47,878 nucleotides of DNA from Deltaproteobacteria bacterium (GTDB lineage: Bacteria > Desulfobacterota > Syntrophia > Syntrophales > UBA2185): assembly GCA_037143735.1 (NCBI GenBank), contig JBAWYD010000003.1, positions 1 to 47,878 of the forward strand, read 5' to 3'. The translations under genes were made by a program, and so were the position numbers. The notes beneath the pieces are model-generated. The model was not told the origin of the DNA. It saw only the letters and a program-made list of their open reading frames with translations, and did no database searches. Of the stretch, positions 4,792 through 44,682 are shown piece after piece; within the stretch, counting starts at the first letter, position 1; each line of letters opens with the position of its first letter.

Positions 4792-4804
4792 CCTTAAAGT
4801 CTCA

Positions 4805-4849
4805 TAAGTGAACCGCCGCCGTCAGTCTCTGCCGACGGCGGTTCACTTA
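4805..4849 (+). promoter_or_regulatory. Intercistronic stem-loop after the binding-protein gene (probable mRNA-stabilising or attenuating hairpin)
   Basis: TAAGTGAACCGCCG(CCG)TC...GACGGCGGTTCACTTA inverted repeat, with no U-tract. Confidence 0.6.
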
Positions 4850-4910
4850 CGCAGGACAAAAGTATCATTTTTTGAAACTACTACAAGGATTGTCTTGAAA
4901 GGAACGTCAG

Positions 4911-5786: not shown

Positions 5787-5794
5787 AGGAAATT

Positions 5795-6757: not shown

Positions 6758-6782
6758 AAGATATACATAGGGAGAAAATCAT

Positions 6783-8199: not shown

Positions 8200-8200
8200 T

Positions 8201-8737: not shown

Positions 8738-8789
8738 ACGTCAGACCTCCTGAAATCATGAAATTCGATTTTTTGATTATTTTTATATT

Positions 8790-8821
8790 AAAAAAGGGTT
8801 AGCCGGTTTCAGCCAACCCTT
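8790..8821 (-). terminator. Probable intrinsic terminator after tRNA-Ala
   Basis: Imperfect AAGGGTT...AACCCTT stem followed by a T-run on the minus strand. Confidence 0.55.
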
Positions 8822-8833
8822 AAATATGATATT

Positions 8834-8909
<76 letters not shown>

Positions 8910-8960
8910 GTACCCAAACATATCAATGAGCGTGCAGATTTAACATACCGTTTCAGGGCT

Positions 8961-9003
8961 TGTCAATACATTTTTCTTGACATTTCACCGCCCCTTATAT
9001 AAT
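8961..9003. promoter_or_regulatory. Back-to-back promoters for the two tRNAs
   Basis: TTGACA on the minus strand (8961-8966) and TTGACA on the plus strand (8977-8982), with TATAAT at 8998-9003 (15-bp spacer, shorter than canonical). Confidence 0.5.
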
Positions 9004-9014
9004 CAGAAAGCCTC

Positions 9015-9101
9015 GCCGGAGTGGTGAAACTGGTAGACGCAGGGGACTCAAAATCCCCCGCCCGCAAGGGCATCCCGGTTCGAACCCGGGCTCCGGCACC
9101 A
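9015..9101 (+). tRNA. tRNA-Leu (CAA)
   Basis: GCCGGAGTGGTGAAACTGGTAGACGCAGGGGACTCAAAATCCCC, long variable arm, GGTTCGAACCC, CCA end. Confidence 0.97.
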
Positions 9102-9106
9102 GAAAA

Positions 9107-9144
9107 TAAAAAGGGGCAGACCGATTAAGGTCAGCCCCTTTTTT
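9107..9144. terminator. Bidirectional intrinsic terminator between tRNA-Leu and the thioesterase gene
   Basis: AAAAAGGGGCAGACC-gattaa-GGTCAGCCCCTTTTTT. Confidence 0.75.
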
Positions 9145-9571
9145 ACGATTTAACTTTTGCCTTTTTACTGTCTATGGCGGCATTGAATTTTTCCGCGTTG
9201 ATGACGAATCTGTCATGGGTCGCCTCGGATATCTTTTCAACATCGTCGTAAGCTTCCAGGGAGAAGGTCAGCTTGCGTCCTTCCATTTTCTCAAGTTTCC
9301 CCTTGACGGTGATGGTCATACCCTCCGGCGTCGCCGCCGTATGGGTCATATTCATACCGATTCCCACCGTCTGCTCTTTAGGCCAGTCCAGATGGGGATT
9401 GAGGGCCTTGATACAGGAAAACTCAAACAGTCCCACGAGAAATCCCGTAGCGAAAACCTTCGGCATGACCTGTCCTTCAGGGATATCCGGAAAAAGATAG
9501 GGAACGGTCTTGCTCTCTGGAACTTTATACTTTAAATCAACGATTAGTCCGGGTTTCAGGGTATCTTTCAT
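9143..9571 (-). CDS. Hotdog-fold thioesterase (fluoroacetyl-CoA thioesterase FlK-like)
   Basis: VFATGFLVGLFE, TVG...HTAATPEG, HDRFVI. The AGGAGG RBS supports ATG 9571. Confidence 0.85.
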   Translation of the reverse strand: MKDTLKPGLIVDLKYKVPESKTVPYLFPDIPEGQVMPKVFATGFLVGLFEFSCIKALNPHLDWPKEQTVGIGMNMTHTAATPEGMTITVKGKLEKMEGRKLTFSLEAYDDVEKISEATHDRFVINAEKFNAAIDSKKAKVKS

Positions 9572-9667
9572 CAAACGCCTCCTTTTAATGGTTTTTGAAT
9601 CCGCCATAATAAAACTAAATTTACCGGATAAGTCAAACGTAAAAATAGTTTGTTTCGATATAGAGAA

Positions 9668-24873: not shown

Positions 24874-27800
24874 CTATGGTTGGTCACTGTTTTTCTCAAG
24901 AAACTTTTTTATCCGGCCCGCAATGAACTCCGGAGGTTCACCCAGGAGAACGCCCGACGGGATGGCTTCCAGGTAACAGTCATCCCAGGGGAGATTGTAT
25001 TCATGAATGAGGTTCCGTATATCATTGAACTGATAGCCGAGGACCTCCTTTTTTTCTTTCACGGACAGGGATTCATTGAATTCCACGTGGATCAGGAGCA
25101 GCTTTCCGACACCGGCGCGATCACCCAGAAGGGGGATGATGACAATGGAAGCGCCGTCTAACTTCCCGCGGCCCACATAGACATGACCGGTGCTCACGAT
25201 GGATCGTTTGGTTCCCATGAGGAGGCTTGAGCCTTCCGTCCTCGATGTCATCGCAAGGGAAATGCCGCCCCTCTTTTCAATGGATATGGTCGAATCCTCC
25301 ACAGGATTTCCATAGGCGTCCAGATGATCAATGTCATAAACCGTATATCCATTGATCCTGGATATTGCGGGGTGGATCCTGTCGAGGGTCAGAATATTTT
25401 TCGCTACCAGGGACTTTACGGAAAATTCAAGTTCCCTGAAAAGATCAAAAACAATGCCTCTGAGCGGCTGTTCCTTTCTGCTCGTTCCCACCGTCACTGT
25501 CTTGGCCTGATGTCTGATGGCATCGATTGGTCTGGAGAGTTCGTCGATGGCATGACCGAGGGATATATCAAGGAGGTCGATGGGAGAGGTGAACCCGTTT
25601 TCTGTTTTAAAATCATGCCAGAAGTCATCGAGAGGCAGTTTTCCAGAAGCATACTTCAAAAGGAGAACCATGTCGGAAACAGTCTTCATCGTTGCCAGGG
25701 AGAAGCAATCGTTGATCATATGTTGATGGAACTTTATGGAGAAATCTCCGACCATTCGCTTGAAGCGCCTGTCTGCAATTCTTTCGTAGATGGAATATTT
25801 TTTCCTGTCATGTTCCATCATTTTCCGATTGAGACGACTTCTGAATGCGCGAAGGATTGAGGCGTCTCCGTCAATGCTGCTGGCGGCATAATAACTCCAG
25901 AGGTGTCCCGCCAGCGTGTTGAGAATAACCGGCAGGGGCATGGGCGCTCCGGGAATCCCGATGACCGCATCGGCGATGTTGTTGAACCGCTCTTCGCCCT
26001 CGTCGGCGAAAACAATGACGCCCGCTTTGTGGGCTTTAAAGATGGCCACGTCCTTGACAATGTCGGATATGACCGTTTCCGGATTTCCCGCCGCGCAGAC
26101 AATGATCAGGGGTTCCGCGGACAGGTCGATATGTTTCTTGTTTTCGATGATATCGGAGGATATGGTTTTGTAACACAGTTCACTGGCTTTAATCCTGATT
26201 TCATCCGCCGCCGCCTTGTTCGGTCCGCTTCCCACGATAGCCCAGTATCTCCTCTGTTTGGCCATTTGCGCGGCGGATTGTTTGATGTCATCCCGTTTTT
26301 CCAGGAGCCTTTCCATCATGCGAGGCGCCTGTTCCAGATTGTGAAGTTCCCCCGCAATGAAATCGTCGGAGGCCGTTTTGAGGATTTGGGCAATACACAG
26401 CGCCAGGATATGTCCGGCAACGATCTGGGAGTAGAATGCCTTGGTCGAGGCGACGGACATCTCAATATCTCTCCCGTCGCTCGTGTAAAAGACGCCGTTT
26501 GCCTTGCTTGTAATATCGGACTGTCTCCTGTTGACGACGGCGATAACGGTGGCGCCCCTCTCTGCCGACATGGCAACAGCGCGGTTTGTATCCGTCGTCG
26601 TTCCCGATTGGGTGATGGGAATAACCAGTGTGTCTTTCAGATCGTCCTCGAGGGCGAAACCGCTCAGTTCGGAGGCCACTTTCGCCTCGATACGGATTCG
26701 GGAGTCTTTTAAATACCGGGCAAAACCATCGGCGACGGCCATGCCGGCAACGGCGGCAGTGCCGTGACCGATGACCAGTATCCGCCGTATTTCACCCTCC
26801 ACGAGGGACTTTCTGAACTTTTCCGGTATGATATCGTGGCCTAAATTGAAGGAAACAGCGTACCCCCCCTCCGCGTTTACGGAAATGCGATACTTGCCTC
26901 TCAGGGTTTTCCTGACGGAAAGCATTGATTCGTGTATTTCCTTCATAAAGAAATGGGGGTAGTTCCCCCGGTCGATGTCGCGGGTCGTGATTTCCGCCCT
27001 GTGAATGTCATCTGTTCCGACAATTACGGGGGTTCCGTCATAACAGAGAACCGTTATCCCTGAAACGCCTCCCTGTGAATCTTCGTCGATAACGAATATC
27101 CGGCCTGTCGATTCATGCTTCTCGGGATCGGACGGCTTTTCTCCATCCATCCTGAGGAAAAAAGGAGTGGCTTCCACGATGCCGTAAAGCTCCGAGGCAA
27201 AAACGTATTGATCGGGGGCCAGCCCGACGTAGATGGACTGTCCGCTTCCCTTAAGGGCAAGAAAGGCCTTCCCCGGTTCGGCATTGCTGACCATGGCGAC
27301 GGCGTGAGAACCTTCGAAATCCGAAACGGCCATTCTGAACGCCTCCGTGAGATCGTGGCCTTCAAGGAGATATTGCTCGATTTGCAGGGGGATGATCTTC
27401 GTATCCGTCGTGATATCCGGCGCGATGAAAACCCCATTACCATCCAGATCGTTTCGAAGGCTTTGATAGTTGTCCACATCCCCATTCAGAACCACGCTGA
27501 TGAACCAGTTTCCCTCACCGTAATGGGGATAGTTTTTCATCGTGTTCCCGCTTACTGTATAATTGTTGACGGGATGGCTGTTTTCATCAGTAATGGAGCC
27601 GACAGAAGCCCAGCGCGTATGGCCTATGGATATCTGGGAAACTGTCTCGACCCTGGAAAATTCCCGAAAGACGCCATCCCCGGCAATGTCCTTCCTCAGC
27701 GCCCTTACATTCTGACCCAGTTCGCCGATGATGGAAGATATTTTATACACGAAAGACAGGGTATGTTTTCCGTCGCGGGGCGATGATGCAAAAAGAATGG

Positions 27801-28644
27801 AGCCGTTGATCAGATCTCCGGGACGGACTCTCTTCTGAAATTCATCATACAGACCTTTCTCCTGAAGGATTTTCATGGTTGATTCGAGAGCCACGTCGTC
27901 ATGCATGGTAAAGGATATCTGAATCCCGGCGGAATCTCTTCCCCGGACTTCGAGCCGGTCTATGTTGTTCAGGAGAAAATTGAGTTTTTTGTATTTTTTC
28001 AGTGTTTCAGTTGTGATGCTATCGGTTTGATCCAAACCCGAAAGCTGCATGATTTTTCCGACATTTTCGAGAATATCTTTCTCGATGCTCCAGATGATGT
28101 CCTTTATGAGGATGTGCCTGCTGTTGATGGTTTCCATATCGACTGTGGAGAAACTGCCGGCATTTTCTTCAAGGAGTTTTTCTTCCTCCGAAAAAAAACC
28201 CTTCATGTCTGCCGAAAGATCGGAGAGTTCCGCCGCTTTTCCCGCATCGAAAAAGATCTGCTGAAAGGGGATGTCTTCCTTGAGACGGAGGACGGTTTCC
28301 CCCATTTCTTCCAAGCCCTTCGCGCCATCCAGATAGTGACGGGAAGAGATCGTGCCGGTGAGCAATCGCGCGATGTTTTTCTGTCTCACTGCCTGAAACC
28401 GCCGGATCAGTTGATGAACAGGATCGAACGCGGCCGGCGCACTGTCCCTCTTGACGGCAATAACACCGGCAAAACCACAGAAAAGCACATCGGGCTGAAA
28501 GGGAAAAAGAATCACGGAACAGGCAGGGGCTTTACGGACATCGATCCCTGCATAGATCTTCCATTTTTTCAGAAAATGTATCGTGTTGACGAAATATGTT
28601 CGGAACTCAGCAAACATTTTTTTCCTGTGGCGCCTTTTCTTCAT
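24874..28644 (-). CDS. glmS: Greatly enlarged glutamine--fructose-6-phosphate aminotransferase (GlmS-like, 1256 aa)
   Basis: CGFAG at residue 56, RLEVRGRDSAG, GHTRWAS, NSHP, LNGDVDNY, TDT. SIS motifs TQSGTTTDT, VASTKAF, EIRIKASE, KKH, AKTVTVG. Lies between a glmU-like gene and pyrG/glmM. Confidence 0.82.
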   Translation of the reverse strand: MKKRRHRKKMFAEFRTYFVNTIHFLKKWKIYAGIDVRKAPACSVILFPFQPDVLFCGFAGVIAVKRDSAPAAFDPVHQLIRRFQAVRQKNIARLLTGTISSRHYLDGAKGLEEMGETVLRLKEDIPFQQIFFDAGKAAELSDLSADMKGFFSEEEKLLEENAGSFSTVDMETINSRHILIKDIIWSIEKDILENVGKIMQLSGLDQTDSITTETLKKYKKLNFLLNNIDRLEVRGRDSAGIQISFTMHDDVALESTMKILQEKGLYDEFQKRVRPGDLINGSILFASSPRDGKHTLSFVYKISSIIGELGQNVRALRKDIAGDGVFREFSRVETVSQISIGHTRWASVGSITDENSHPVNNYTVSGNTMKNYPHYGEGNWFISVVLNGDVDNYQSLRNDLDGNGVFIAPDITTDTKIIPLQIEQYLLEGHDLTEAFRMAVSDFEGSHAVAMVSNAEPGKAFLALKGSGQSIYVGLAPDQYVFASELYGIVEATPFFLRMDGEKPSDPEKHESTGRIFVIDEDSQGGVSGITVLCYDGTPVIVGTDDIHRAEITTRDIDRGNYPHFFMKEIHESMLSVRKTLRGKYRISVNAEGGYAVSFNLGHDIIPEKFRKSLVEGEIRRILVIGHGTAAVAGMAVADGFARYLKDSRIRIEAKVASELSGFALEDDLKDTLVIPITQSGTTTDTNRAVAMSAERGATVIAVVNRRQSDITSKANGVFYTSDGRDIEMSVASTKAFYSQIVAGHILALCIAQILKTASDDFIAGELHNLEQAPRMMERLLEKRDDIKQSAAQMAKQRRYWAIVGSGPNKAAADEIRIKASELCYKTISSDIIENKKHIDLSAEPLIIVCAAGNPETVISDIVKDVAIFKAHKAGVIVFADEGEERFNNIADAVIGIPGAPMPLPVILNTLAGHLWSYYAASSIDGDASILRAFRSRLNRKMMEHDRKKYSIYERIADRRFKRMVGDFSIKFHQHMINDCFSLATMKTVSDMVLLLKYASGKLPLDDFWHDFKTENGFTSPIDLLDISLGHAIDELSRPIDAIRHQAKTVTVGTSRKEQPLRGIVFDLFRELEFSVKSLVAKNILTLDRIHPAISRINGYTVYDIDHLDAYGNPVEDSTISIEKRGGISLAMTSRTEGSSLLMGTKRSIVSTGHVYVGRGKLDGASIVIIPLLGDRAGVGKLLLIHVEFNESLSVKEKKEVLGYQFNDIRNLIHEYNLPWDDCYLEAIPSGVLLGEPPEFIAGRIKKFLEKNSDQP

Positions 28645-29903
28645 TAAAACCTGAAGGATGGCAAATGGCTCAGAGAAGAGCCAGTGATGCCGTCAACAAT
28701 GTTCTGTAACCATTGTGTTCCGATGATTGATTCCCCTTTGTCCAGACTTTTAATGACCTGCAGATAGTTCTTCTCGCCCCTGTTGATGTTATGGTGAATT
28801 ATTCCTGTGAAATCATCGCGGTTTTTTTGATCGATCCTTGTTTCATGCCCGCTTTTGAAGCAGGTTTCAATTCCCGGCCAGTTTTCAAGAAATTCCTTTT
28901 CCTGTTTGAGGACGGTCTTTTTATATCGTATTTTTTCTCCCTGGGCTATGGACGCTTCCATTTTTTCGGAAAGGGCCCGAAAGCGGTTTATTCTTTCCCC
29001 GATCATGCTTTCGAGGGCGTCCATCATTCCCATGTACAATCCTTCTCCCATATCCTGAAGCCGGAAAAAAGGCTGCCGGATGTGAATATACCATTCTCTG
29101 AGAGCCAGAAGATTGGCAAGATAGGAGATGTTGTTATAGACCCGTCGGGTGACGTCCCCGTAAAAGCCCGTATGAAAGGTCTTGTCTCTTGCCGCATCGT
29201 TTTTTTCGATTAACAGTTTGCCGCCTTCCGGACAATCTTTGCGATAAACCGTTCCGGCCGCGATGACTGTTCCATACCCGATTCTGACGGGGCCGACGAG
29301 CCCCCCCTGACCTCCCAAAAAAATGGGAGACTGGTTGAGCATCACTCCTCCGGGCACATCACCGACGAGAGATGGCGTTGCCTTATCCTGATTCGGGGTA
29401 TAGTTGAAATGGATATAGGAGCTGCCAACTTCACTGTGATCTTTTCTGCTTGTGCCTCCCGCCATAAAACAGTCGCAAAAATTAATCAGGCTGCCCAGGG
29501 TGACAAAGGGGAAAAGGAGGGTTTGCTTCAATCCGACTGTATGAGCCGCGTTCGCTTGTTCTTCCAGGATGCATCCTTCCCGGACAAGGGCGCCGCTTGA
29601 CAGACTGGATCCTTCAAGGAAGACGGAGGATTTAAAAAAGCCGCCCTTCAATTCCACACGGGGTCCGAGCTGGCAATCAACGACAGTAACCGGTGATTCC
29701 TGGCCCAATCTTGACCCTTTGGAAATCAATGTTTTTTTACCATATATCCTGGTTCCTGAATGGATGATAACATCCTCACCGGAAATCCTGTCGGGATCAA
29801 CCTCATTTCCTATTTCAATAGAAAGGGGGTTGTGAATCCTCACGCCTTTGGCCATGAGTTGCCTGATATTTTCGGATAATCCGGTTGTATTTTCTTTTAT
29901 CAC
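28644..29903 (-). CDS. GlmU-like left-handed beta-helix (acetyltransferase-type) protein lacking the uridylyltransferase domain
   Basis: Begins LMAKGVRIHNP, like the start of the GlmU C-terminal domain. Hexapeptide-like repeats, HFNY, GPVRIGYGTVIAAGT. No LAAGxGTRM motif. Its stop overlaps the glmS-like start (TAATG). Confidence 0.7.
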   Translation of the reverse strand: MIKENTTGLSENIRQLMAKGVRIHNPLSIEIGNEVDPDRISGEDVIIHSGTRIYGKKTLISKGSRLGQESPVTVVDCQLGPRVELKGGFFKSSVFLEGSSLSSGALVREGCILEEQANAAHTVGLKQTLLFPFVTLGSLINFCDCFMAGGTSRKDHSEVGSSYIHFNYTPNQDKATPSLVGDVPGGVMLNQSPIFLGGQGGLVGPVRIGYGTVIAAGTVYRKDCPEGGKLLIEKNDAARDKTFHTGFYGDVTRRVYNNISYLANLLALREWYIHIRQPFFRLQDMGEGLYMGMMDALESMIGERINRFRALSEKMEASIAQGEKIRYKKTVLKQEKEFLENWPGIETCFKSGHETRIDQKNRDDFTGIIHHNINRGEKNYLQVIKSLDKGESIIGTQWLQNIVDGITGSSLSHLPSFRF

Positions 29904-33174: not shown

Positions 33175-34686
33175 GTGCGAAAGCTTACCGTCAAAACAAT
33201 AAAAATGAGTAAACGCAACCCGGTTGACATTTGCAGATTTTATGACTCTTCATCTCCATGCGGTTGTGAGTTGGAAAATATTATTGACTCATGTCATGAT
33301 GGTATTTTCATAACCGACGGGCAGGGGATCATCTTGAAGGTTAACAGCGGATGGGAGCGAATTTGCGGACTTCACCGAGAATTCATGTTAGGGAAATGCG
33401 CTCAGGATCTCGTAAATGAGAAGTTCTATACGGAATCTTCTGTAATGGCAGCAATAAGGGCGGAAAAACCGGTTACCATAATGCTGGAGATGACTAAAGG
33501 GGAGAAGGTCGGTCAGAAAATAATGGCAACCGCCATACCTGTATGGAACGAAAACGGAGAAATCAAACGAGTGGTTGCCAATATCAGAGATATAACGGAA
33601 ATACTTTATTTAAAAGAATTATTGGACAAAACCCAGCTGTTGAATGAATTATATGTCGCCGAAATTGAGCAGATGCGGCTTAACCAATTTACCAGTAACC
33701 ACGGCTTGATAGCTCGGAGCCCTTTAACGATACGTGTAATGGAAATGGTAGCGCGTGTCGCCAGTTTTGATGTGTTTGTTTTAATCACCGGCGAGTCTGG
33801 TGTCGGCAAGGAAGTGATTGCGAATGCTATTCACAAGCAAAGCCAGCGTTCAAAGGGGCCTCTCATCAAAGTGAACTGCGGAGCGATTCCTGAAAATCTG
33901 CTTGAATCTGAACTTTTCGGGTACAACTTCGGCGCCTTTACCGGCGCAAGAAAACAGGGGAAACCCGGCATGTTTGAACTCGCCGACAAAGGAACCCTGT
34001 TTTTAGACGAAATTGGGGATATTCCATATAACCTCCAGGGCAAGCTTTTAAGAGCTTTACAGGACCGTGAGATCATGCGGATTGGCGGCCTGAAGACCAC
34101 CCCTGTTGATGTGCGCATCATTGCTGCGACAAACAAGAATCTTGAAGAAATGGTAAATAACGGTTCTTTTCGTGATGACCTTTATTATCGCCTTAACGTT
34201 GTTTCAATTGAAATTCCCCCATTGCGTGAACGCAAAGAAGACATCCCTATCTTTGTTATGCACTTTCTGGAAAAGATGAACAAAAAACATCAACGCAACA
34301 AGCGCATTGCTTCAGAGGTTCTTGATAATTTCATGCTCTACTCCTGGCCTGGCAACGTACGTGAATTGGAGAATGTAATAGAGCGGTTGGTTATCATGAC
34401 CGAGGAGGATGAAGTCAACATGAAACATGTGCCAATTCAAATTAAAAGTCAGAATATTCCTGAAACGATGAACATTATCGATGATGTTGGATTTAAAACG
34501 GCAATTGAGCATACTGAAAAACAATTGCTTAAACAGGCACTCCTGAATCACCGGAGTACGAGAGAAATCGCAAAATCAATGAAAATCAATCAATCCACCG
34601 TAGTGCGCAAACTAAAGAAATATAACCTGTCTCCATCCTACAATGGTGAACCACACAAGCCACCAAACCAGGGACAACATGAATGA
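33175..34686 (+). CDS. sigma54-dependent transcriptional activator (PAS-AAA+-HTH)
   Basis: PAS (DGIFITDGQGIILKVN), GESGVGKE, ESELFG, intact GAFTGA, LFLDEIG, WPGNVRELEN, C-terminal HTH (STREIAKSMKINQSTVVRKL). Start GTG 33175 or ATG 33205. Confidence 0.95.
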   Translation: MRKLTVKTIKMSKRNPVDICRFYDSSSPCGCELENIIDSCHDGIFITDGQGIILKVNSGWERICGLHREFMLGKCAQDLVNEKFYTESSVMAAIRAEKPVTIMLEMTKGEKVGQKIMATAIPVWNENGEIKRVVANIRDITEILYLKELLDKTQLLNELYVAEIEQMRLNQFTSNHGLIARSPLTIRVMEMVARVASFDVFVLITGESGVGKEVIANAIHKQSQRSKGPLIKVNCGAIPENLLESELFGYNFGAFTGARKQGKPGMFELADKGTLFLDEIGDIPYNLQGKLLRALQDREIMRIGGLKTTPVDVRIIAATNKNLEEMVNNGSFRDDLYYRLNVVSIEIPPLRERKEDIPIFVMHFLEKMNKKHQRNKRIASEVLDNFMLYSWPGNVRELENVIERLVIMTEEDEVNMKHVPIQIKSQNIPETMNIIDDVGFKTAIEHTEKQLLKQALLNHRSTREIAKSMKINQSTVVRKLKKYNLSPSYNGEPHKPPNQGQHE

Positions 34687-34773: not shown

Positions 34774-35913
34774 TCACCTTAGAATACTGCCGGCGATAAC
34801 CATGCGCATTGCCTCACTCGTGCCTTCATAGATTTGGGTAATCTTCGCGTCCCGCATCAGGCGCTCCACCGGATATTCGCGGCTATAACCGTAGCCGCCA
34901 AATACCTGGACGGCATCGGTCGTAACGGACATAGCGGTATCAGAAGCAAACAGCTTGGCCATGGCCGCTTCCTTTGCATAAGGCAGATTATTCGACTTGT
35001 TATAAGCAGCTTTCAAGGTTAAAAGACGGGCGGCTTCAATTTTTGTAGCCATGTTGGCAAGCATAAAGCTGATAGCCTGCTGGCTCGCGATGGGTTTGCC
35101 GAACTGAATACGTTCTTTGGCATATTTCATAGCGGCATCCAGGGCGCCCTGAGCGATCCCGACCGCTTGAGCGGCGATACCGATGCGGCCGCCATCCAAA
35201 GCAGTCATGGCAATTTTAAATCCATCGCCTTCTTTACCCAGGAGGTTTTCGGCAGGAGTACGGGCATTTACCATAATGACTTCACGCTGCACCGATGCAC
35301 GAATGCCCATTTTGATTTCTTTTTTACCGAAGCTCAAGCCGGGCGAACCCTTCTCGAGAATTAATGCGCTCATCCCCTTAAGGCCGGCCTCTTTATTTGT
35401 TTTGGCAAAAATGAGTTCGACTTCCGCCTCCCCACCGTTCGTGTTGAAAACCTTGGTTCCATTCAGGATATAGAAATCGCCGTCTCTGACCGCAGTTGTC
35501 GATGCATTGCCTACGTCTGTGCCGGCATTGGGTTCTGTGAGACCAAATGCTCCCACCTTTGTGCCTTGTGCCAACGGTACCAGGTATTTTTGTTTTTGCT
35601 CTTCCGTACCGTATTTAAAGATCGGCCAGGAACACAGGGAAGTGTGCACCGACATACCGATAGAAGTCGATGCGTCCACACGGGAGATTTCCTCAACCGC
35701 AATGGCATAAGCGATGAAATCCATATCGCCTCCACCATACTTTTCAGGAAACGGCAAACCCATCAGGCCCAATTTTCCCATTTCATCAAATATCCCTCGG
35801 TCAAATAGCTCTTTTTCGTCACGCTCTACAATAGTTGTAGCTAATTTCTTCTCGACATATTCCCGCACCATTTTGCGGATGCCTTCATTTTCCGGTGTCA
35901 TAGTGAAATTCAT
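34774..35913 (-). CDS. Acyl-CoA dehydrogenase (butyryl-CoA dehydrogenase/CarC-like)
   Basis: [38 protein letters not shown], catalytic IYEGT. Confidence 0.93.
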
Positions 35914-35983: not shown

Positions 35984-37177
35984 TTATTGCAAAACTTCCC
36001 TTAACCTGGCAGTCAAAGCCGGCACCACCTCGTACACATCGCCGACTATTCCGTAGGTTGCTACTTTAAAGATAGGCGCATCAGGATCTGTATTGATTGC
36101 AATGATGACATCAGATGTTTGCATACCCGCTAAATGCTGAATAGCGCCGGATATGCCGCAAGCGATATAGATTTTGGGTGCTACCGTTTTTCCTGTTTGA
36201 CCGACTTGGTGCGGATAAGGCTTCCACCCGGCGTCAACCGCCGCCCGAGACGATCCGACCGTACCCTTTAATACTTGTGCCAGTTCCTCAACGATCCGGA
36301 ATCCTTCCGGCTTTCCAAGCCCCCGTCCGCCGGATACGATAATCTCGGCGTCTTCCAAATTGCATGAGAAAGAACAAACCTTAACAACATCGATCAGTTT
36401 TGTTCGAATGTCTTCCTCATTGATCGCCAATTCCTCTCTGATTATTTTACCTGTACGGCTGTAGTCCGGTTCAGGCTTCTTAAAGACCTTGGGCCTTACT
36501 GTACCCATTTGCGGACGGTGGTTTGGACAAAAAATAGTTGCCATAATATTGCCGCCAAAAGCAGGCCTTGTCCACGCTACCAACCGGGTTTCCATATCTA
36601 TGGCAAGACTCGTGCAGTCGGCGGTTAATCCCGTCTTCACCCTGGCGGCTATGCGAGGGCCTAAATCGCGGCCATCGTTGGTTGCACCCAATAATATGAC
36701 AGAAGGAAGATACTTTTTAATCAAGTGCGTAAAGACAATCGTATAGGCATCCGTAGTATAGTTTTTAAAAGCAGTACCTTCCGCCAAATATACGTTGTCG
36801 GCGCCGCTGGCAAACAGATCTTTGCTCATTTCCGCTACTTTATCACCAATGAGAACGGCAGACACTTCCTCGCCAAGCTCTTCAGCGAGTTTTCTTCCCT
36901 CGCCCAGAAGTTCCAGCGATACGTTGCGAATACGTCCATCCCGATGTTCGATAAATACCCATACCCCTTTGTAGGAGCTGATATCTTCCGGCTCTTCCGC
37001 TTTCTCCCGCTCCACGACGATGGCAGAAACGTTACAACTGCTTTCACAAGCGCCGCATGATGTACAATCATCAGTAATAACGGCCTTGTTATCTTTCATA
37101 ACAATTGCACCGTACGGACAACTCTCAATGCACATTTCACAACCAATGCATTCTTCCGATATAATCTTCACAGACAT
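35984..37177 (-). CDS. etfA: Electron transfer flavoprotein alpha subunit with N-terminal 2x[4Fe-4S] ferredoxin domain
   Basis: CIGCEMCIESCP and CTSCGACESSC, then GLTADCT, RPAFGGN, SGGRG, QVGQTGK, GISGAIQH. Confidence 0.95.
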   Translation of the reverse strand: MSVKIISEECIGCEMCIESCPYGAIVMKDNKAVITDDCTSCGACESSCNVSAIVVEREKAEEPEDISSYKGVWVFIEHRDGRIRNVSLELLGEGRKLAEELGEEVSAVLIGDKVAEMSKDLFASGADNVYLAEGTAFKNYTTDAYTIVFTHLIKKYLPSVILLGATNDGRDLGPRIAARVKTGLTADCTSLAIDMETRLVAWTRPAFGGNIMATIFCPNHRPQMGTVRPKVFKKPEPDYSRTGKIIREELAINEEDIRTKLIDVVKVCSFSCNLEDAEIIVSGGRGLGKPEGFRIVEELAQVLKGTVGSSRAAVDAGWKPYPHQVGQTGKTVAPKIYIACGISGAIQHLAGMQTSDVIIAINTDPDAPIFKVATYGIVGDVYEVVPALTARLREVLQ

Positions 37178-37197: not shown

Positions 37198-37980
37198 CTA
37201 TATTATCTTGGCCTGCATCAACTTATCGACAAGCAAATCAACAGCGTCTTTGCTATCGCCCTGAATGATTTCACCTTGACCGCGCTGCTGCGGGGTAAAT
37301 ATTCGCCGAACCTGAGTAGCTGAACCATTAAGGCCTACGTCCATAGCATCAATGTCAAGGTCGGCAGCGGTCCATACGGGGATCTCACTACGGTAGGCTT
37401 TCGCCGTACCTTTTACCGTGGGAAGGCGGGGGTCGGTGGCCAGTTTGATGATAGTCACCACCAACGGCAGTTTGGCTTCTATTACATCATATCCCTCATC
37501 CTGTTCACGGTCGGCGATGACCCTTTCACCGTCAACTTCAATTTTGCTGACATAAGTAATCTGGCCAATACCAAGATGTTCCGCCATTTCCGGTCCAACC
37601 TGGGCCGTATCCCCGTCAATCGCCTGTTTACCGCAAATGATTAAATCGACGTTGCCCATTTTGCGCACTGCCGCAGATAATGTATAGGATGTAGCCAGGG
37701 TATCCCCACCCGCAAACGCTCTATCACTTAATAAAATGGCCTGATCGGCGCCCATGGCAATACATTCCTTCAGCGCATCCGCTGCCTGCGGCGGTCCCAT
37801 GCTTAATGCAGTAATCCTTCCTCCGTGTTTATCTTTAAGCTGTAGTGCCATTTCGAGAGCATATTTATCAAAAGGATTGACAATGCTCGGCACCCCTTCC
37901 CGAATCAACGTATTGGTATCAGGATCGATTTTTACTTCTGTTGTATCAGGTACCTGTTTGACACATACAACAATTTCCAT
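37198..37980 (-). CDS. etfB: Electron transfer flavoprotein beta subunit
   Basis: CVKQVPD, NPFD, SMGP, DRAFAGGDTLAT, GKQAIDGDTAQVGP. Confidence 0.95.
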   Translation of the reverse strand: MEIVVCVKQVPDTTEVKIDPDTNTLIREGVPSIVNPFDKYALEMALQLKDKHGGRITALSMGPPQAADALKECIAMGADQAILLSDRAFAGGDTLATSYTLSAAVRKMGNVDLIICGKQAIDGDTAQVGPEMAEHLGIGQITYVSKIEVDGERVIADREQDEGYDVIEAKLPLVVTIIKLATDPRLPTVKGTAKAYRSEIPVWTAADLDIDAMDVGLNGSATQVRRIFTPQQRGQGEIIQGDSKDAVDLLVDKLMQAKII

Positions 37981-38177: not shown

Positions 38178-39509
38178 TTAAGCCGCTTTCTTGGTTATGA
38201 TTGGTTTCGAATCGGTTGTGAAATACATCGCCACTGCACCGACAATGAGTGATACCATACAGAACAAGAAGGTGGCCTGAAAGGCTGCCACAGGAAATTT
38301 ACCGTCAACCTTCCCGTAGAGATCGAGCACCACGCCCATCAATGCCTGATATAAAGCCCCGCCTATAAAGTACCATATATTCAGCATCCCGTTGGATGTC
38401 GCCATGAAACTGACCGGCTGGCCATCGGCTATGTGTGCGTAATTGGGCACATATGCTCCGCAGAAAAAGCCCATGGCAAATAACAATGGATAAAACATGT
38501 TAGGGGGGATCGATCCGGCGAAGAAAGCTAACGGAATCCAGGTCAAAACGTAGATAATCATGCCGTACAGGGAAGTCTTCCTGCGGGATTTCAGAATACG
38601 GTCGGAACACCAACCGGCCGCAAAACACCCTAACGCCATCCCGATAGGCCAGAACATGAGCATGTTGGCCGCCTGTTGCTTAGGCAAGCCGACTATCTGC
38701 TGCGCATAGGGAATGAACCAGAGCCCCTGGAATCCCATGACCGTACCGTAAATAACAAAAGCGTAGAGTGATATTAACCAATAGTTCTTCATCTTTAAGA
38801 GCTTAAAGAAATTATCCTTAAAGGTCTTCTTCTGATCTGCAGTCTGTGCCGGGTAGTAATCAATGCCGTCAATCTCCGAAACTGTAGGATAACCCATGTC
38901 GCCCGGTTTATTTCGGACGATTATGTAGTCGACAATAGATATGATGACCATAAAAGCGCCTAACCATAAGAATGAATTCCGCCATCCAACGATACCCACC
39001 AGAAACGCAAGCGGCGCGGATGCGAGTATGGCGCCGACATTGCCCCAGGTGAGCATCACACCGGTAAGCGTCGCTAATTCATTCGGCCGGAACCAGTTAT
39101 ACAGGATCTTCATACACGGCATCCATACAACCGCAACGCCCACACCCATTAAAAAGCGGCCTAATATGCACCAACCGAAGGTTGTCGCCAAACCAAAGAG
39201 CGCCGTGCCGATTGCCGCTATGATGAAAAAGGAACTCATTGAAAGTCTGGGGCCAATTTTATCGGCCAGGACTCCCGACGGGAATTGCATCGCCGCATAA
39301 GGATAAAAGTACATCGATGACAAGATACCGAGGGTGGTCGCCGACAGACCAAATTCCTTCATCAGCTCCGGTGCAACAACCGCTGGTGCAACACGGTCGA
39401 AATATACAAAAATATACGTTAACAAGAACATTCCATAAGTAACCCAACGATACGTAAGCATCTTCTTGGCTTTTGCAACATCAACTCCTGCGGCTACCTT
39501 TGCACTCAT
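38178..39509 (-). CDS. Major facilitator superfamily transporter (organic-anion type)
   Basis: About 12 TM helices, YFDRV in TM1, GVLADKIGPR motif A, GWCSDRILKSRR. Confidence 0.92.
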   Translation of the reverse strand: MSAKVAAGVDVAKAKKMLTYRWVTYGMFLLTYIFVYFDRVAPAVVAPELMKEFGLSATTLGILSSMYFYPYAAMQFPSGVLADKIGPRLSMSSFFIIAAIGTALFGLATTFGWCILGRFLMGVGVAVVWMPCMKILYNWFRPNELATLTGVMLTWGNVGAILASAPLAFLVGIVGWRNSFLWLGAFMVIISIVDYIIVRNKPGDMGYPTVSEIDGIDYYPAQTADQKKTFKDNFFKLLKMKNYWLISLYAFVIYGTVMGFQGLWFIPYAQQIVGLPKQQAANMLMFWPIGMALGCFAAGWCSDRILKSRRKTSLYGMIIYVLTWIPLAFFAGSIPPNMFYPLLFAMGFFCGAYVPNYAHIADGQPVSFMATSNGMLNIWYFIGGALYQALMGVVLDLYGKVDGKFPVAAFQATFLFCMVSLIVGAVAMYFTTDSKPIITKKAA

Positions 39510-39699: not shown

Positions 39700-41169
39700 T
39701 TATTTTTTCTTCTTTTCCGGCTCCGGTATTTCTTCAGTAATACCGGCAATTTTTCTGGCATAATCAGCAAACTGGTCAACGGGAGTCAGAGATCTGACAA
39801 CCAATTTTGCACCATCGGGTGAACCGCCGCCGTGCATACATCCCGGAACGCCTGCGCCAAGGGTCAGCCACTCTGAAAGCCTTGCTGCGCGAGCCCTTGA
39901 TTCAGCGCTGAATTTATCGCAGGCTTTCAAAGCCGATTGAACCATGGCTCCTATTTTTTTGTCATTAAAGTCCTGCGCTGAAGGGAAACATCCTGTTTCA
40001 ACGACACCGCCTCCGATGTCCTGGCAGAGGCGCTTTGTTTCATAAGGAAGAGTCGCCACATGGACTTTATTGGCATGAGCGATCAGGGAATCTGAAACCC
40101 ACATACCGCCGGGCCCCTTTTTTCCTAAAGCCATCGCGCCAATTCCCATTGCGTATGTGGTCTCATTATTAACGGCCATTTCCACCATCTTGCCGGCAAA
40201 TGTGCTCGCCGCCAATCCATTCGTCCTCGCCATAAGCGCCGCAGCGCCAATCATGACGTCTCCCTGACCGGCGACGCAGGCGCCAATGCAAGCACGGTAG
40301 TTGGCTGTAAAATATTCTATAATTTTCCCGGAATACTTGAATTCCTTGCACATGAAAACTCTGTCATTGGGAACAAAGCAGTCTTTGAAAAACAGAAAAG
40401 CCTGGGTGATGCCCGTCTCCGGTATATCGAATCCGCCTTCCATTTCTCTGGTATCGCTTGGCCTGCGCGCCTCCACGATTGTAAGACCTTTTATATCCTT
40501 CGGTACAACGCAGCAAAGGGCGTAATCCTGATCCTCTTCCCTGTAACCGCCTCCCGGTAAAAGAAATATCTCGTTAGAGGCGGCCACACCGCAGATCATC
40601 GCTTTCATTCCGCTGATGACGATTCCATCTTCACGGACTTCTGTAATATGCAGATTGCTGTCCGGATTGGTCTGCTGTGATGGTCTCAGGCTGCGGTCCC
40701 CTTTGGCGTCTGTAAGAGCGCCCGCCACGACGAGACCATTTTGCTGAGAATAGATAATCCATTTTTTGAGACGCTCCTGGTATTTAGTTCCGTATTCCTT
40801 GTCCATAAGCGCCGTGATATTCCACATTACATTCTGGGCGTTCCATCCGACACACACGCCGCCGCTGCAACTTCCCGTAAAGCGGTACATCCACCTCTTC
40901 AGTTTTGAATTAGCCATAATGTCTTCCAGCGTTTCCATCATGGAAGTCCATCTGTGTATTCTTTCACCGCTTGTAAAAGTGGAGTTGGTAGTGAAATCCT
41001 GGGCATATTGCTGATCATGTGATGCGTCAAATGCCCGCGCATGGCTTTCGACAGCCCTCTTTGTCGCCGGATGAGTCGTAACATCCTCAATCAACTCCCC
41101 AAATTTGTAAATATTCGGCCTCATTGCCTTTAATGATTTTTTATAGTCTTCTCTCGTTTTCAGTGCCAT
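39700..41169 (-). CDS. 4-hydroxybutyryl-CoA dehydratase / 4-hydroxyphenylacetate-3-hydroxylase family flavoprotein (divergent)
   Basis: GALTDAKGDRS, DGIVISGMKA, FVPNDRVFM, QDIGGG, MHGGGSP. Cys motifs CSGGVC and RACIGAC. Confidence 0.85.
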   Translation of the reverse strand: MALKTREDYKKSLKAMRPNIYKFGELIEDVTTHPATKRAVESHARAFDASHDQQYAQDFTTNSTFTSGERIHRWTSMMETLEDIMANSKLKRWMYRFTGSCSGGVCVGWNAQNVMWNITALMDKEYGTKYQERLKKWIIYSQQNGLVVAGALTDAKGDRSLRPSQQTNPDSNLHITEVREDGIVISGMKAMICGVAASNEIFLLPGGGYREEDQDYALCCVVPKDIKGLTIVEARRPSDTREMEGGFDIPETGITQAFLFFKDCFVPNDRVFMCKEFKYSGKIIEYFTANYRACIGACVAGQGDVMIGAAALMARTNGLAASTFAGKMVEMAVNNETTYAMGIGAMALGKKGPGGMWVSDSLIAHANKVHVATLPYETKRLCQDIGGGVVETGCFPSAQDFNDKKIGAMVQSALKACDKFSAESRARAARLSEWLTLGAGVPGCMHGGGSPDGAKLVVRSLTPVDQFADYARKIAGITEEIPEPEKKKK

Positions 41170-41221: not shown

Positions 41222-42799
41222 TCAGTTAATGTCTCGTAATATCTCTCTTTTGATGCCCATGGGCGTTTCATGCTGGAAAATTCGTGCATCCATCACTTTA
41301 AGGTTAGGAGCAACGAGAGGCTTGTATTCCATTTGAGCGAATATATCTTTTTCAATATCTACGCCGGGAGCAACCTCCGTCAGCATGACTCCTTCAGGTG
41401 TCAGTTCAAAAACGGCACGTTCCGTCACATAAACGATCTTTTGACCGCTTGTCTGCCCGTACTCACCGCTGAAGGTAATATGCTCCACTTTTTTGACTAA
41501 TTTTTTTATCTTGCCTTCTTTTACTATTTTCAGCTTTCCATCGCCGATCTCTAACTCAAGGCCGCTGGCAGTGAGTGTTCCACAGAACACTACTTTCTTT
41601 GCACTCTGTGAGATGTTAATAAAACCGCCCGCGCCTGCTATCCTCGGACCGAACTTACTTACGTTCACATTCCCGTACTGATCCATTTCCGCCATACCTA
41701 ACACAGCTACATCGAGCCCGCCGCCATCATAAAAATCAAACATAAGGGGATGGTCAATCAACGCTTCCGGATTCACTGCCGTTCCAAAATAGAGCTTGCC
41801 CAGAGGCACGCCGCCAATTGCTCCCGGTTCAACCGTCATTGTCATGAATTCGGTGAGTCCCTCTTCAGCCGAAACCACACCAACACCTTCCGGCATGCCG
41901 ATTCCAAGATTAACGACTGCGTTTGGCACAAGTTCCATAGCGCACCTTCGGCAAACTACTTTTCTTTCGCTCATCGGCAATACAGAAACCTGATTTAGAG
42001 GAACTCTTATTTCACCGCACAGGCTCGGATTGTACTGCTCTGCCATGGGAATCTGCCAGTGGTTCTCAGGCTTTGCAACGACGATCGCGTCCACAATTAT
42101 TTTTGGTATCTTTACCATCATCGGATGAAGCGATCCCGCTTTCGCCACCCTCTCCACCTGCACAATTACTTTACCCCCAGACCCCTTGGCAGCCAACGCC
42201 AGCAAGGCAAATTCCAGGCAAATAGCTTCTTTTTCAATGGATATGTTGCCATTTTCGTCTGCAGTGGTTCCGCGAATAATGGCAACATTTATCGGGATGG
42301 CCTTATAAAACAGGTATTCCTTGCCATCTATTTCCATTAAGCGGACATACTCTTCATGGCTGATGCTGTTTAGCTTTCCTCCGGTTTCTCTGGGATCCAC
42401 AAATGTTTTCAGGCCGATATGTGTAATGATCCCCGGCTTCTTGCCGGCAGTGGCTCTCCATACATGGAGAATTACACCCTGGGGGATATTGTATGCCTCT
42501 ATTTTGTTAGCAACAGCCAACTTGATCATATCCGGCTGCAATGCCCAGTGACCTGAAACGACCTTCTTTAACAGCCCTTCTTTTGCCCAGCGATTCAGTC
42601 CCCAGTTTGATTTCCCGTCATTCTGGCTTGCGCCAAATGTAAGCGTTAAATTATTTGGTTCTCCAGTTTCTAAAAAACTCTTTTCAACCGCCTTTGACAT
42701 TTCTTCCGGATGGCCCATCCCAACAAATCCAGAAGTTGCAACCGTGTCTCCATTTTTGATCAACTTAACCGCTTCTTCTGCAGACATGAATTTTGCCAC
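41222..42799 (-). CDS. Family I acyl-CoA:acetate CoA-transferase (Pct/YdiF type)
   Basis: IGLKTFVDPR, RGTTADENGN, VNLGIGMPEG, catalytic Glu in TVEPGAIGG, FDFYDGGGLD, GAGGFINISQ, YVTERAVF. GTG start with GGAGG RBS. Confidence 0.93.
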   Translation of the reverse strand: MAKFMSAEEAVKLIKNGDTVATSGFVGMGHPEEMSKAVEKSFLETGEPNNLTLTFGASQNDGKSNWGLNRWAKEGLLKKVVSGHWALQPDMIKLAVANKIEAYNIPQGVILHVWRATAGKKPGIITHIGLKTFVDPRETGGKLNSISHEEYVRLMEIDGKEYLFYKAIPINVAIIRGTTADENGNISIEKEAICLEFALLALAAKGSGGKVIVQVERVAKAGSLHPMMVKIPKIIVDAIVVAKPENHWQIPMAEQYNPSLCGEIRVPLNQVSVLPMSERKVVCRRCAMELVPNAVVNLGIGMPEGVGVVSAEEGLTEFMTMTVEPGAIGGVPLGKLYFGTAVNPEALIDHPLMFDFYDGGGLDVAVLGMAEMDQYGNVNVSKFGPRIAGAGGFINISQSAKKVVFCGTLTASGLELEIGDGKLKIVKEGKIKKLVKKVEHITFSGEYGQTSGQKIVYVTERAVFELTPEGVMLTEVAPGVDIEKDIFAQMEYKPLVAPNLKVMDARIFQHETPMGIKREILRDIN

Positions 42800-42885: not shown

Positions 42886-42900
42886 GCAATTTATATGCCA
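42886..42900 (-). promoter_or_regulatory. sigma54 (-24/-12) promoter of the island operon
   Basis: TGGCATATAAATTGC has exact GG-N10-GC spacing and lies ~90 bp upstream of the CoA-transferase start. Confidence 0.85.
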
Positions 42901-43605: not shown

Positions 43606-44682
43606 ATGGAGATCAGGATTGAAAAAATCGAACCGGAGAAGATGAAGTCGAAACCTGTTGATGAGTCCAAGCTCGGATTCGGCAAGATATTTACCGATCA
43701 TATGTTTACCGCGAAATATCATGTCGACCGGGGGTGGCACGATGCTGTGATAGAACCCTACCGGGCCTTATCCCTCGATCCCACATCGATGTGTCTTCAT
43801 TATGGGCAGGAAATTTTTGAAGGGATGAAGGCATACAGGGGTAAAAACGACGCAATATTTCTCTTCAGGCCTGATGAAAACATCAAACGCATGAACGTCT
43901 CCGCGGAAAGAATGTGCATGGCGGCAATAGATGCGGGGATGTTTATGGATGCTTTGAAAAGGCTGATTCTTTTGGAGAAAGACTGGATTCCCCGGGGCAC
44001 AGGAACTTCCCTCTATATCCGTCCAACCCTGATTGCAACGGAGAAGGCTCTGGGTGTGCATCCCGCCAATGAGTACCTCTTTTTTATTGTTGTGGGGCCT
44101 GTGGGGGCATATTATCCGGAGGGTTTCAATCCGACAAAGATGTATGTCAGCGAGGAGTATGTCCGATCGGTGCGTGGCGGAACTGGAAATTGTAAAGCGG
44201 CCGGCAATTATGCCGCAAGTCTTTATGCGAGCAGAATAGCCAATGAAATGGGATATACGCAGGTGTTGTGGCTTGATGCCATTGAAATGAAATATGTTGA
44301 AGAGGTGGGTACGAGCAATGTCTTTTTCGTCATTGGTGATGAACTGATCACGCCTCCCCTGGGTGGGACAATCCTTCCCGGTGTCACACGCGATTCGGTC
44401 ATTCAGTTAGCCAGGAGCTGGGACATTCCGGTGAATGAGAGACCCATATCCATAGACGACGTTTTGTCAGCTCAGGCCGACGGCAGTCTGAAAGAAGCTT
44501 TTGCATCGGGGACGGCAGCCATCGTTTCACCCATCGGGCAGTTTTTTTATAAGGGCAAGGCGTCGGTCATCAATGAAGGAAAAGTTGGCGCCCTGACTGA
44601 AAAATTATATAATGAAATTCTGCAGATTCAATATGGTGAAAATGAAGATCCCTTTGGATGGAGAGTTAAGGTCACAGATTAA
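43606..44682 (+). CDS. ilvE: Branched-chain amino acid aminotransferase
   Basis: LHYGQEIFEGMKAY, LYIRP, PLP lysine in CKAAGNY, EEVGTSN, ILPGVTR, GTAA. Confidence 0.96.
   Translation: MEIRIEKIEPEKMKSKPVDESKLGFGKIFTDHMFTAKYHVDRGWHDAVIEPYRALSLDPTSMCLHYGQEIFEGMKAYRGKNDAIFLFRPDENIKRMNVSAERMCMAAIDAGMFMDALKRLILLEKDWIPRGTGTSLYIRPTLIATEKALGVHPANEYLFFIVVGPVGAYYPEGFNPTKMYVSEEYVRSVRGGTGNCKAAGNYAASLYASRIANEMGYTQVLWLDAIEMKYVEEVGTSNVFFVIGDELITPPLGGTILPGVTRDSVIQLARSWDIPVNERPISIDDVLSAQADGSLKEAFASGTAAIVSPIGQFFYKGKASVINEGKVGALTEKLYNEILQIQYGENEDPFGWRVKVTD

Follow-up and report, generated by a model that had tools for sequence, protein, structure and literature searches.

The locus described here raises the question of whether a gene that resembles abfD, the gene for 4-hydroxybutyryl-coenzyme A (CoA) dehydratase, encodes that enzyme or another one. 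The window, that is, the whole stretch of DNA that was analyzed (47,878 nucleotides), is the entire contig C3 (JBAWYD010000003.1) of a Deltaproteobacteria bacterium (GCA_037143735.1), whose genome comprises 2.56 Mb in 262 contigs and is 96% complete. The gene in question encodes P0001, a relative of AbfD from Clostridium aminobutyricum. AbfD is among the very few enzymes that join a flavin and an iron-sulfur (Fe-S) cluster for radical dehydration. The initial annotation, made by eye, held that the gene was not a canonical 4-hydroxybutyryl-CoA dehydratase. Our best explanation is that the open reading frame (ORF) encodes an intact enzyme with flavin adenine dinucleotide (FAD) and a [4Fe-4S] cluster, which belongs to a separate clade sister to AbfD, and the sequence comparison supports the conclusion that P0001 is not a 4-hydroxybutyryl-CoA dehydratase.

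Active-site residues of P0001

Proteins of solved structure were searched with P0001 using HMMER. The top relative was AbfD of C. aminobutyricum (1u8v, E = 1.5e-90), followed by the N. maritimus enzyme (6vjr, E = 4.5e-86), and the HpaB monooxygenases in the PDB gave weaker matches (E = 1e-21). P0001 shares the Pfam domains and the fold of AbfD (35% and 33% identity). Its AlphaFold2 model had a pLDDT of 92.1 and was superposed on 1u8v by Foldseek with a template modeling score of 0.93 and a root-mean-square deviation of 1.8. Both the Pfam matches and the superposition showed the HpaB_N/HpaB fold, which resembles that of acyl-CoA dehydrogenases. HpaB, the oxygenase component of 4-hydroxyphenylacetate 3-monooxygenase, belongs to the same Pfam families as P0001, but it lacks the cluster cysteines, of which the clade of P0001 has four that are invariant. 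The NCBIfam HpaB models scored 110 and 74 bits on P0001, below their cut-offs of 480 and 885.

A preprint on the archaeal enzyme names C99, C103, C299 and H292 as the cluster ligands and T190, E257, Y296 and E455 as residues that matter for dehydration; the T190/E257 pair is thought there to protonate the flavin semiquinone in the internal redox cycle (bioRxiv 10.1101/2020.02.05.935528). Residue equivalences were counted along the HMMER alignment of P0001 with 1u8v, which recovered the AbfD numbering (C99, C103, E257, H292, Y296, C299, E455) exactly. The equivalents of Cys99, Cys103 and Cys299 were present in P0001, so that three of the four cluster ligands are conserved, with a new spacing (Cx4C in place of Cx3C). 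Arg90 and the scaffold motifs T-D-x-K-G-D-R and MHG-x-GSP were also retained. In contrast, the His292 ligand and Thr190, Glu257, Tyr296 and Glu455 were all replaced (Table 1): His292 by Tyr, Thr190 by Cys, Glu257 by Gln and Tyr296 by Ile, while Glu455 was deleted. In addition, Lys300 is Val, AbfD KAHQTG is KAMICG, and the invariant Cys394 and Glu391 stand in or beside an inserted 'GC'. In these active-site exchanges polar or charged residues gave way to hydrophobic or thiol side chains.

The motifs that had been placed by eye, CSGGVC, YRACIGAC, TQAF and GCMHGGGS, were all confirmed on the minus strand by translation, and the changes read from them (Cx3C to Cx4C, His292 to Tyr, Tyr296 to Ile and Glu257 to Gln) were borne out by the alignment. 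The conversion of ESMHGAGS to GCMHGGGS held for the peptide and for the new Cys444, but the proposed exchange of Glu455 for Gly did not hold, because the alignment puts Glu455 in a four-residue deletion ('yrte') and not opposite Gly443. The GCMHGGGS block was the least confident part of the model (pLDDT 65). The change of T190 to C193 and the invariant C394 insertion went beyond the initial annotation. No equivalent of His292, Tyr296, Glu257, Glu455 or T190 was kept, and the tree, the co-occurrence data and the gene neighborhoods given below agree with the view that P0001 is not a canonical 4-hydroxybutyryl-CoA dehydratase.

The alignment by hhalign placed C193 opposite the S/T of the K-x-F-I-S/T-N motif of acyl-CoA dehydrogenases. 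A base of the acyl-CoA dehydrogenase type in the clade was considered and dropped, since the profile-profile alignment to the butyryl-CoA dehydrogenase (Bcd) types covered only the middle beta-domain (probability 82%). By its near-C-terminal position, AbfD Glu455 would be a likelier counterpart of the dehydrogenase catalytic Glu than Glu391.

A distinct clade and its conserved cysteines

The relation of P0001 to canonical AbfD was analyzed by database searches and a tree. A word-indexed search returned 120 clusters at 67-90% identity to P0001. An exhaustive search of 1.84 billion representatives (50% clustering) returned only three full-length clusters above 45% identity, P0122 (60%), P0123 (53%) and P0124 (46%). 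The next full-length match was at 37% or less, the level at which the canonical AbfD types fall. A quick tree of 98 rows was built with FastTree, without bootstraps. The clade was monophyletic with a Shimodaira-Hasegawa-like support of 100, its stem was 0.5 substitutions per column long, its inner branches were short (0.1-0.2), and the canonical AbfD group (P0127, P0128) was a separate neighbor. P0001 thus lies in a clade of its own apart from canonical AbfD; we call it the ETGC clade after one of its motifs.

In the tree the clade covered Thermodesulfobacteriota, Bacillota, Bacteroidota, Chloroflexota, Ignavibacteriota and one archaeal metagenome-assembled genome. The carriers included Syntrophales, Syntrophobacteraceae, rumen Bacteroidales, Anaerolineae and the archaeal genome, as well as the Bacillota Desulfofundulus, Neomoorella, Megasphaera and Intestinimonas. 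According to their labels, the loci nearest to the window come from metagenomic genomes of Syntrophales and Syntrophaceae. A close homologue was found in 25 of 201 sampled genomes of the order and in 12 of 19 of the same family, while the sole other genome of the same genus lacked one; this patchy distribution looks like that of an accessory gene. No second gene of the AbfD superfamily was found in the genome that encodes P0001. Canonical AbfD (53-66% identity to P0127) was also present in 10 of 30 carrier genomes, with two copies in Megasphaera cerevisiae, and the presence of both enzymes in one genome argues against their doing the same job. From these sequence data, the ETGC clade appears to be a widespread sister group of AbfD.

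Conservation was examined in 189 clade sequences, which combined database clusters with ORFs from the loci; some rows were duplicated, and two distant paralogues were dropped. At least 98% conservation was seen at 123 positions, G103 among them. C101, C106, C298, C394 and Y291 were invariant (189/189), followed by I295 (188/189), Q256 (186/189), C294 and C444 (184/189 each) and C193 (183/189). Because the residue changes are fixed across the clade, they are not chance drift. P0001 carries all of the clade motifs, C-x-G-G-x-C, K-x-M-I-C-G, T-Q-A, Y-R-x-x-I-G-x-C, E-T-G-C and G-C-M-H-G-G-G-S-P-D-G-A. Position 294 was Ala in the EtfA-fused forms, in P0122 and in deeper-branching members, and position 444 was Phe or Thr in a few. 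P0124 lacked C193, C294 and C444, yet had the four invariant cysteines. Among 80 representative rows of the superfamily, the 'GC' insertion was limited to P0001, P0122, P0123 and P0124.

The pattern suggests that C101, C106, C298 and C394 ligate the cluster. C394 is the best candidate for the replacement of the His ligand because of its invariance and its place in an insertion found only in the clade, and the most economical interpretation is that Cys394 replaced His292 in the role of fourth ligand. The suggestion of a possibly all-Cys ligation was therefore plausible as such, but not by way of the new cysteines first proposed, since C294 and C444 are not invariant.

Several other uncharacterized superfamily clades without His292 were also seen (P0140, P0143, P0145, P0155, P0157, P0160, P0163 and P0170). 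Cx4C occurred in P0140, P0145, P0155 and P0160 of these, and the ETGC insertion in none. Judged from the alignments, His-less cluster sites seem to have arisen more than once in the AbfD superfamily.

Both the annotations at the source and the names assigned automatically in the Atlas call the proteins of the ETGC clade 4-hydroxybutyryl-CoA dehydratase or HpaB-domain protein, and the database name of P0001 is almost certainly wrong. A full-text literature search, with most subscription journals and supplements outside its reach, found no paper characterizing the clade. In a paper on a benzene consortium, AbfD is cited merely as a mechanistic analogy (PMC13101534).

The operon, related loci and gene fusions

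The gene for P0001 is the second of a six-gene operon (CoA-transferase, P0001, transporter, EtfB, ferredoxin-EtfA, acyl-CoA dehydrogenase; Table 1), where EtfA and EtfB are the subunits of an electron-transferring flavoprotein (ETF).

Table 1. Positions of P0001, its diagnostic motifs and the surrounding features in the window; residues after an arrow carry P0001 numbering
Feature	Position	Strand	Evidence or remark
AbfD-like Fe-S flavoenzyme AbfDl, P0001, 489 amino acids	39700..41169	-	Pfam HpaB_N + HpaB
CSGGVC; Cx4C replaces C99-x3-C103	40852..40869	-	C99 -> C101, C103 -> C106, one-residue insertion
KAMICG; C193 at AbfD T190	40588..40605	-	HMMER alignment, translation
TQAF; Gln256 replaces Glu257	40396..40407	-	HMMER alignment, translation
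YRACIGAC; H292 -> Y291, S295 -> C294, Y296 -> I295, C299 -> C298	40276..40299	-	HMMER alignment, translation
ETGC; Glu391 and Cys394, both invariant; 'GC' is a two-residue insertion unique to the clade	39988..39999	-	clade alignment
GCMHGGGS; loop without Glu455 through a four-residue deletion; S456 -> C444	39820..39843	-	HMMER alignment
Family-I CoA-transferase, fused alpha/beta, YdiF/FadX type	41222..42799	-	Pfam CoA_trans
Major facilitator superfamily (MFS) transporter (organic-anion type)	38178..39509	-	Pfam MFS_1; NCBIfam matches all below cut-off
EtfB, bifurcating type	37198..37980	-	PDB matches
EtfA with N-terminal 2x[4Fe-4S] ferredoxin domain, CarE-like	35984..37177	-	Pfam Fer4 + ETF + ETF_alpha
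Short-chain acyl-CoA dehydrogenase, Bcd/AcrC/CarC type, catalytic-Glu motif IYEGT	34774..35913	-	
PAS + sigma54 enhancer-binding protein, convergent with the operon	33175..34686	+	
Sigma54-type promoter TGGCAT-N5-TTGC (GG-N10-GC)	42886..42900	-	87 nucleotides upstream of the CoA-transferase GTG

The CoA-transferase matched YdiF (PDB 2ahu, E = 4e-134) and scored 429 bits with the NCBIfam FadX model, below the cut-off of 750. The EtfB scored 259-276 bits with 4kpu_B, 6fah_B (CarD) and 5ol2_B, in comparison with about 100 bits for non-bifurcating ETFs, and the EtfA aligned with CarE (6fah_A) over residues 1-393, ferredoxin domain included (E = 4.5e-141). The best NCBIfam models for the dehydrogenase and both ETF subunits were those of acryloyl-CoA reductase, AcrA, AcrB and AcrC, all below cut-off. 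The nearest known systems to these three proteins were Bcd-EtfAB (5OL2/4KPU) and the caffeyl-CoA reductase CarCDE (6FAH). Since the two ETF subunits are closest to proven bifurcating ETFs, electron bifurcation is predicted. As in the caffeate system, the ETF and dehydrogenase genes are joined to a CoA-transferase gene. We know of no bifurcating dehydrogenase/EtfAB complex in which a subunit belongs to the AbfD family or in which EtfA is fused to such a subunit.

The sigma54 motif preceded the CoA-transferase gene in 23 of 26 related loci, where 0.04 per 850 nucleotides is expected. The whole window held three matches to the promoter pattern, which is the chance level, so the argument for sigma54 control rests on position and conservation. 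No convincing terminator was found on the operon's own strand in its interior. In three metatranscriptome libraries, which stem from three studies, contigs with 90-97% identity covered parts of the operon, and two to three of them hit the P0001 gene; coming from relatives, they are a weak indication of presence in RNA libraries and not of transcript structure. Pfam and NCBIfam scans of the window found no 4-hydroxybutyrate genes (AbfT/Cat2 transferase, 4-hydroxybutyrate dehydrogenase).

We analyzed the neighborhoods of the clade genes by clustering the ORFs of 80 related loci from named genomes. An acyl-CoA dehydrogenase was near the clade gene in 55 of the loci, EtfA in 32, EtfB in 30, a YdiF-type CoA-transferase and a sigma54 activator in 26 each, an MFS transporter in 25, FixC in 17 and a PaaK-like ligase in 14. 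As a control, we drew from 10 of these genomes 20 places at which canonical AbfD is encoded (52-66% identity to P0127) and examined the genes within 8 kb. There, ETF was found at 1, an acyl-CoA dehydrogenase at 4 and a Cat2-type transferase at 6 of the 20 places, compared with 2 of the 80 clade loci for the Cat2-type transferase. The Fisher p values for clade versus canonical places were 0.003 for ETF, 0.0001 for the acyl-CoA dehydrogenase and 0.0007 for Cat2, all of which overstate the significance because the loci are related. ETF and acyl-CoA dehydrogenase genes are much commoner beside the clade than beside canonical AbfD, and Cat2/AbfT is rarer.

The layout differed between lineages. Syntrophales had a window-like order with a FixCX-dehydrogenase-FixAB unit upstream. 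Syntrophobacteraceae had the activator, the transferase, the AbfD-like gene and the dehydrogenase, and then Fix genes and an MFS transporter. The order in Desulfobacterota and Anaerolineae was TetR, dehydrogenase, EtfB, EtfA, AbfD-like gene and ligase, and that in Bacteroidales was AbfD-like gene, dehydrogenase and CitMHS_2 transporter. In the closest relatives, L001-L008, L034 and L077, a MobA-like protein, FixC, FixX, a second dehydrogenase and FixAB-type EtfB/EtfA lay ahead of the sigma54 promoter. The window lacks this unit and has at that place a class-IV (branched-chain) aminotransferase (43606-44682, plus strand).

Gene fusions were also found. In at least five cluster representatives, which belong to different phyla, EtfA was fused to the N-terminus of the clade enzyme: P0123 (825 amino acids), P0130 (cut off) and P0274-6 (876-877 amino acids, labelled Elusimicrobia and Eisenbacteria). 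In one case (P0272), the clade enzyme stood ahead of a complete acyl-CoA dehydrogenase. These fusions show that the enzyme is closely coupled to ETF in function and probably forms a complex with it; direct electron transfer does not follow from the fusions by themselves. In P0273 (936 amino acids, three member sequences), an AbfD-like domain stood ahead of a complete pyridoxal phosphate enzyme of Cys/Met metabolism, of the O-acetylhomoserine sulfhydrylase type. This architecture, seen only once, hints at sulfur chemistry when it is taken with the three additional cysteines of the active site.

Proposed function and alternatives

We read P0001 as a step of an ETF-linked CoA pathway for a short acid, and infer that its substrate or its chemistry differs from that of AbfD. 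Our tentative proposal is that P0001 is a non-AbfD Fe-S flavoenzyme with a four-Cys cluster including C394, which turns the CoA ester made by the transferase into an enoyl-CoA for a CarCDE-like bifurcating reductase. A small organic acid would enter through the MFS transporter and would be activated to its CoA ester by the YdiF/Pct-type CoA-transferase. P0001 would then convert the ester by an Fe-S/flavin elimination or a double-bond shift, using an acid-base set unlike that of AbfD, for which Tyr291, Glu391 and Cys193/294/444 are candidates. The CarCDE-like dehydrogenase/EtfAB would reduce the 2-enoyl-CoA with NADH, with ferredoxin being reduced too, and the transferase would pass the CoA to the next acid molecule. 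The ETF and P0001 would probably be in one complex. 5-Hydroxyvalerate/5-aminovalerate, lactate, betaines, 3-methylthiopropionate and arylacetates were weighed as substrates, and the evidence did not discriminate among them. Betaines were considered in view of the BCCT neighbors in four loci, 3-methylthiopropionate in view of the DmdB-like ligase in L054, and arylacetates in view of the PaaK-like ligase in 14 loci.

The 2-hydroxyacyl-CoA dehydratases, which act on lactoyl-, phenyllactyl- or 2-hydroxyglutaryl-CoA and use an ATP-dependent activator, belong to pathways made up of a CoA-transferase, a radical Fe-S dehydratase and an acyl-CoA dehydrogenase/ETF reductase. The operon has the same shape, but the fold of those dehydratases is unrelated to that of P0001, and no gene for an activator ATPase was found among the neighbors of the clade genes in the window and the 80 loci.

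Several observations weigh against the proposal of a dehydratase-like enzyme that feeds the reductase. The activating enzymes vary by lineage (YdiF-type, Cat2-type, PaaK-type and FadD-type ligases), and so do the transporters (MFS, BCCT, CitMHS_2), so that the clade may not share one substrate; gene context is unlikely to prove a single substrate for all of its members. The members in Syntrophomonas, L010, L011 and L029 have no acyl-CoA neighbors at all. In Desulfobacterota, Anaerolineae and Bacteroidota, the catalytic Glu is missing from the neighboring dehydrogenase (IYEGT to PS[AG]GT), which is a poor fit to a simple scheme of a dehydratase feeding a reductase in those lineages. As to the cluster, C294, one helix turn ahead of C298, or an open iron site may take the place of C394.

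The ORFs without the Glu were those of L042-L047, L051, L053-L058, L060-L063, L065-L068, L070, L072, L074 and L080 and one of the two L033 copies, and they also lacked a Glu at the alternative position of isovaleryl-CoA dehydrogenase. One such dehydrogenase was found on contig C55 (L082) of the same genome as the window. There, a thiamine pyrophosphate enzyme (7374-9065, minus strand), which scored 546 bits with an acetolactate-synthase-like model (cut-off 587) and 377 bits with 2-hydroxyacyl-CoA lyase, is followed by the Glu-less dehydrogenase, 77% identical to the Desulfopila one, EtfB and EtfA (6131-7267, 5309-6109 and 4158-5204, all minus strand). The Glu-less dehydrogenase with EtfBA was ruled out as an obligate partner of P0001, since the C55 set adjoins no AbfD-like gene.

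Near the AbfD-like gene of L032, L054, L055 and L068, two proteins recurred, namely a BCCT transporter and a conserved one of about 280 amino acids. The conserved protein matched no Pfam family in L032 (E <= 0.01) and only had weak ferredoxin-like matches in L054, where a DmdB-like ligase (below cut-off) was also found. A preprint describes BbuA, the gamma-butyrobetainyl-CoA trimethylamine-lyase, as a member of the acyl-CoA dehydrogenase family with about 10% identity to AbfD that performs a redox-neutral C4 elimination to crotonyl-CoA (bioRxiv 10.1101/2021.01.25.428109). BbuA is like P0001 a flavoenzyme of the broad superfamily, and the BCCT genes of the four loci add to the likeness. It differs in having, according to that preprint, no Fe-S cluster, and the window operon has an MFS and not a BCCT transporter.

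The main alternative, which we consider less likely, is that P0001 is itself an ETF-dependent oxidoreductase, taking the place of Bcd in Bcd-EtfAB and accepting electrons from the EtfA flavin or donating them to it. It would then carry out net redox chemistry on the CoA ester, for example a reductive gamma-elimination or a dienoyl-CoA reduction or desaturation, with the [4Fe-4S] cluster as a relay or a substrate-binding site. The direct fusion of EtfA to the enzyme N-terminus and the loss of the flavin-protonating T190/E257 pair would fit such a role. In the fusion lineages, moreover, the EtfB is also of the bifurcating type and the acyl-CoA dehydrogenase is Glu-less, so that another subunit must do the chemistry. 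However, the dehydrogenase of the window operon is a complete one of the Bcd/CarC type, IYEGT included, and is the ordinary partner of an ETF, some members of the clade have no ETF nearby, and a gene fusion shows a functional link and not direct electron transfer.

We regard it as improbable that P0001 carries out the AbfD reaction itself. The shared fold and the three retained cluster cysteines would agree with an isofunctional enzyme, and a conversion of 4-hydroxybutyrate to butyrate would require precisely a transferase, a dehydratase and Bcd/Etf. In M. cerevisiae (L041) and in L021, the gene also adjoins a Cat2/But-family CoA-transferase, as abfD does abfT. Against this stand the replacement of all five dehydration residues by invariant others, the long stem of the clade and the co-occurrence of canonical AbfD in 10 of 30 carriers, M. 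cerevisiae included. Furthermore, no 4-hydroxybutyrate or succinate-semialdehyde dehydrogenase was found among the recurrent neighbors.

There is a slim chance that the clade consists of radical enzymes primed by electron bifurcation and not by ATP, in which a low-potential electron from the bifurcating ETF, covalently fused to the enzyme in some lineages, would enter an all-Cys [4Fe-4S] cluster adjacent to the FAD and start ketyl-type chemistry on a CoA ester. Such an enzyme could carry out a dehydration otherwise known only from the ATP-activated 2-hydroxyacyl-CoA dehydratases, such as that of lactoyl-CoA to acryloyl-CoA. To our knowledge, rumen Bacteroidales that make propionate by the acrylate route still lack a dehydratase gene for it, and a bifurcation-primed dehydratase, if true, would supply it.

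A catalytically dead scaffold or regulatory subunit of the ETF/dehydrogenase complex, which the loss of every known catalytic residue and the fusions to partner subunits might suggest, is very improbable in view of the 123 highly conserved positions, the four cysteines and a new invariant active-site set that is not expected of a dead enzyme, the short branches within the clade, and Fe-S assembly genes beside second copies. The genomes with these second copies, L010 (11587-13201) and L011, are metagenomic ones of Syntrophales; in both, genes for an Mrp/NUBPL-type Fe-S carrier ATPase and for a NifU-like scaffold come after the copy, and acyl-CoA genes do not.

The AbfD gene serves as a marker both of butyrate formation by the 4-aminobutyrate/succinate route in gut metagenomes and of CO2 fixation by the 4-hydroxybutyrate cycles. 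A clade that bears the AbfD name without its catalytic residues would give false positives for such markers. The clade is also a natural experiment on the roles that the His ligand and the acid-base residues play in AbfD, and electron-bifurcating ETFs may have in it a new class of partner. Carriers available in culture include Desulfofundulus thermosubterraneus DSM 16057, Neomoorella sulfitireducens, M. cerevisiae DSM 20462, Desulfopila aestuarii DSM 18488 and Intestinimonas butyriciproducens, so that direct tests are feasible.

Elsewhere in the window, an ORF of 1256 amino acids (24874-28644, minus strand) had as its sole Pfam match a SIS domain at residues 620-748 and was followed by an ORF of 419 amino acids without a family (28644-29903, minus strand). 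At 9143-9607 on the minus strand, a hot-dog thioesterase is encoded that belongs to the Pfam family FlK (fluoroacetyl-CoA thioesterase).

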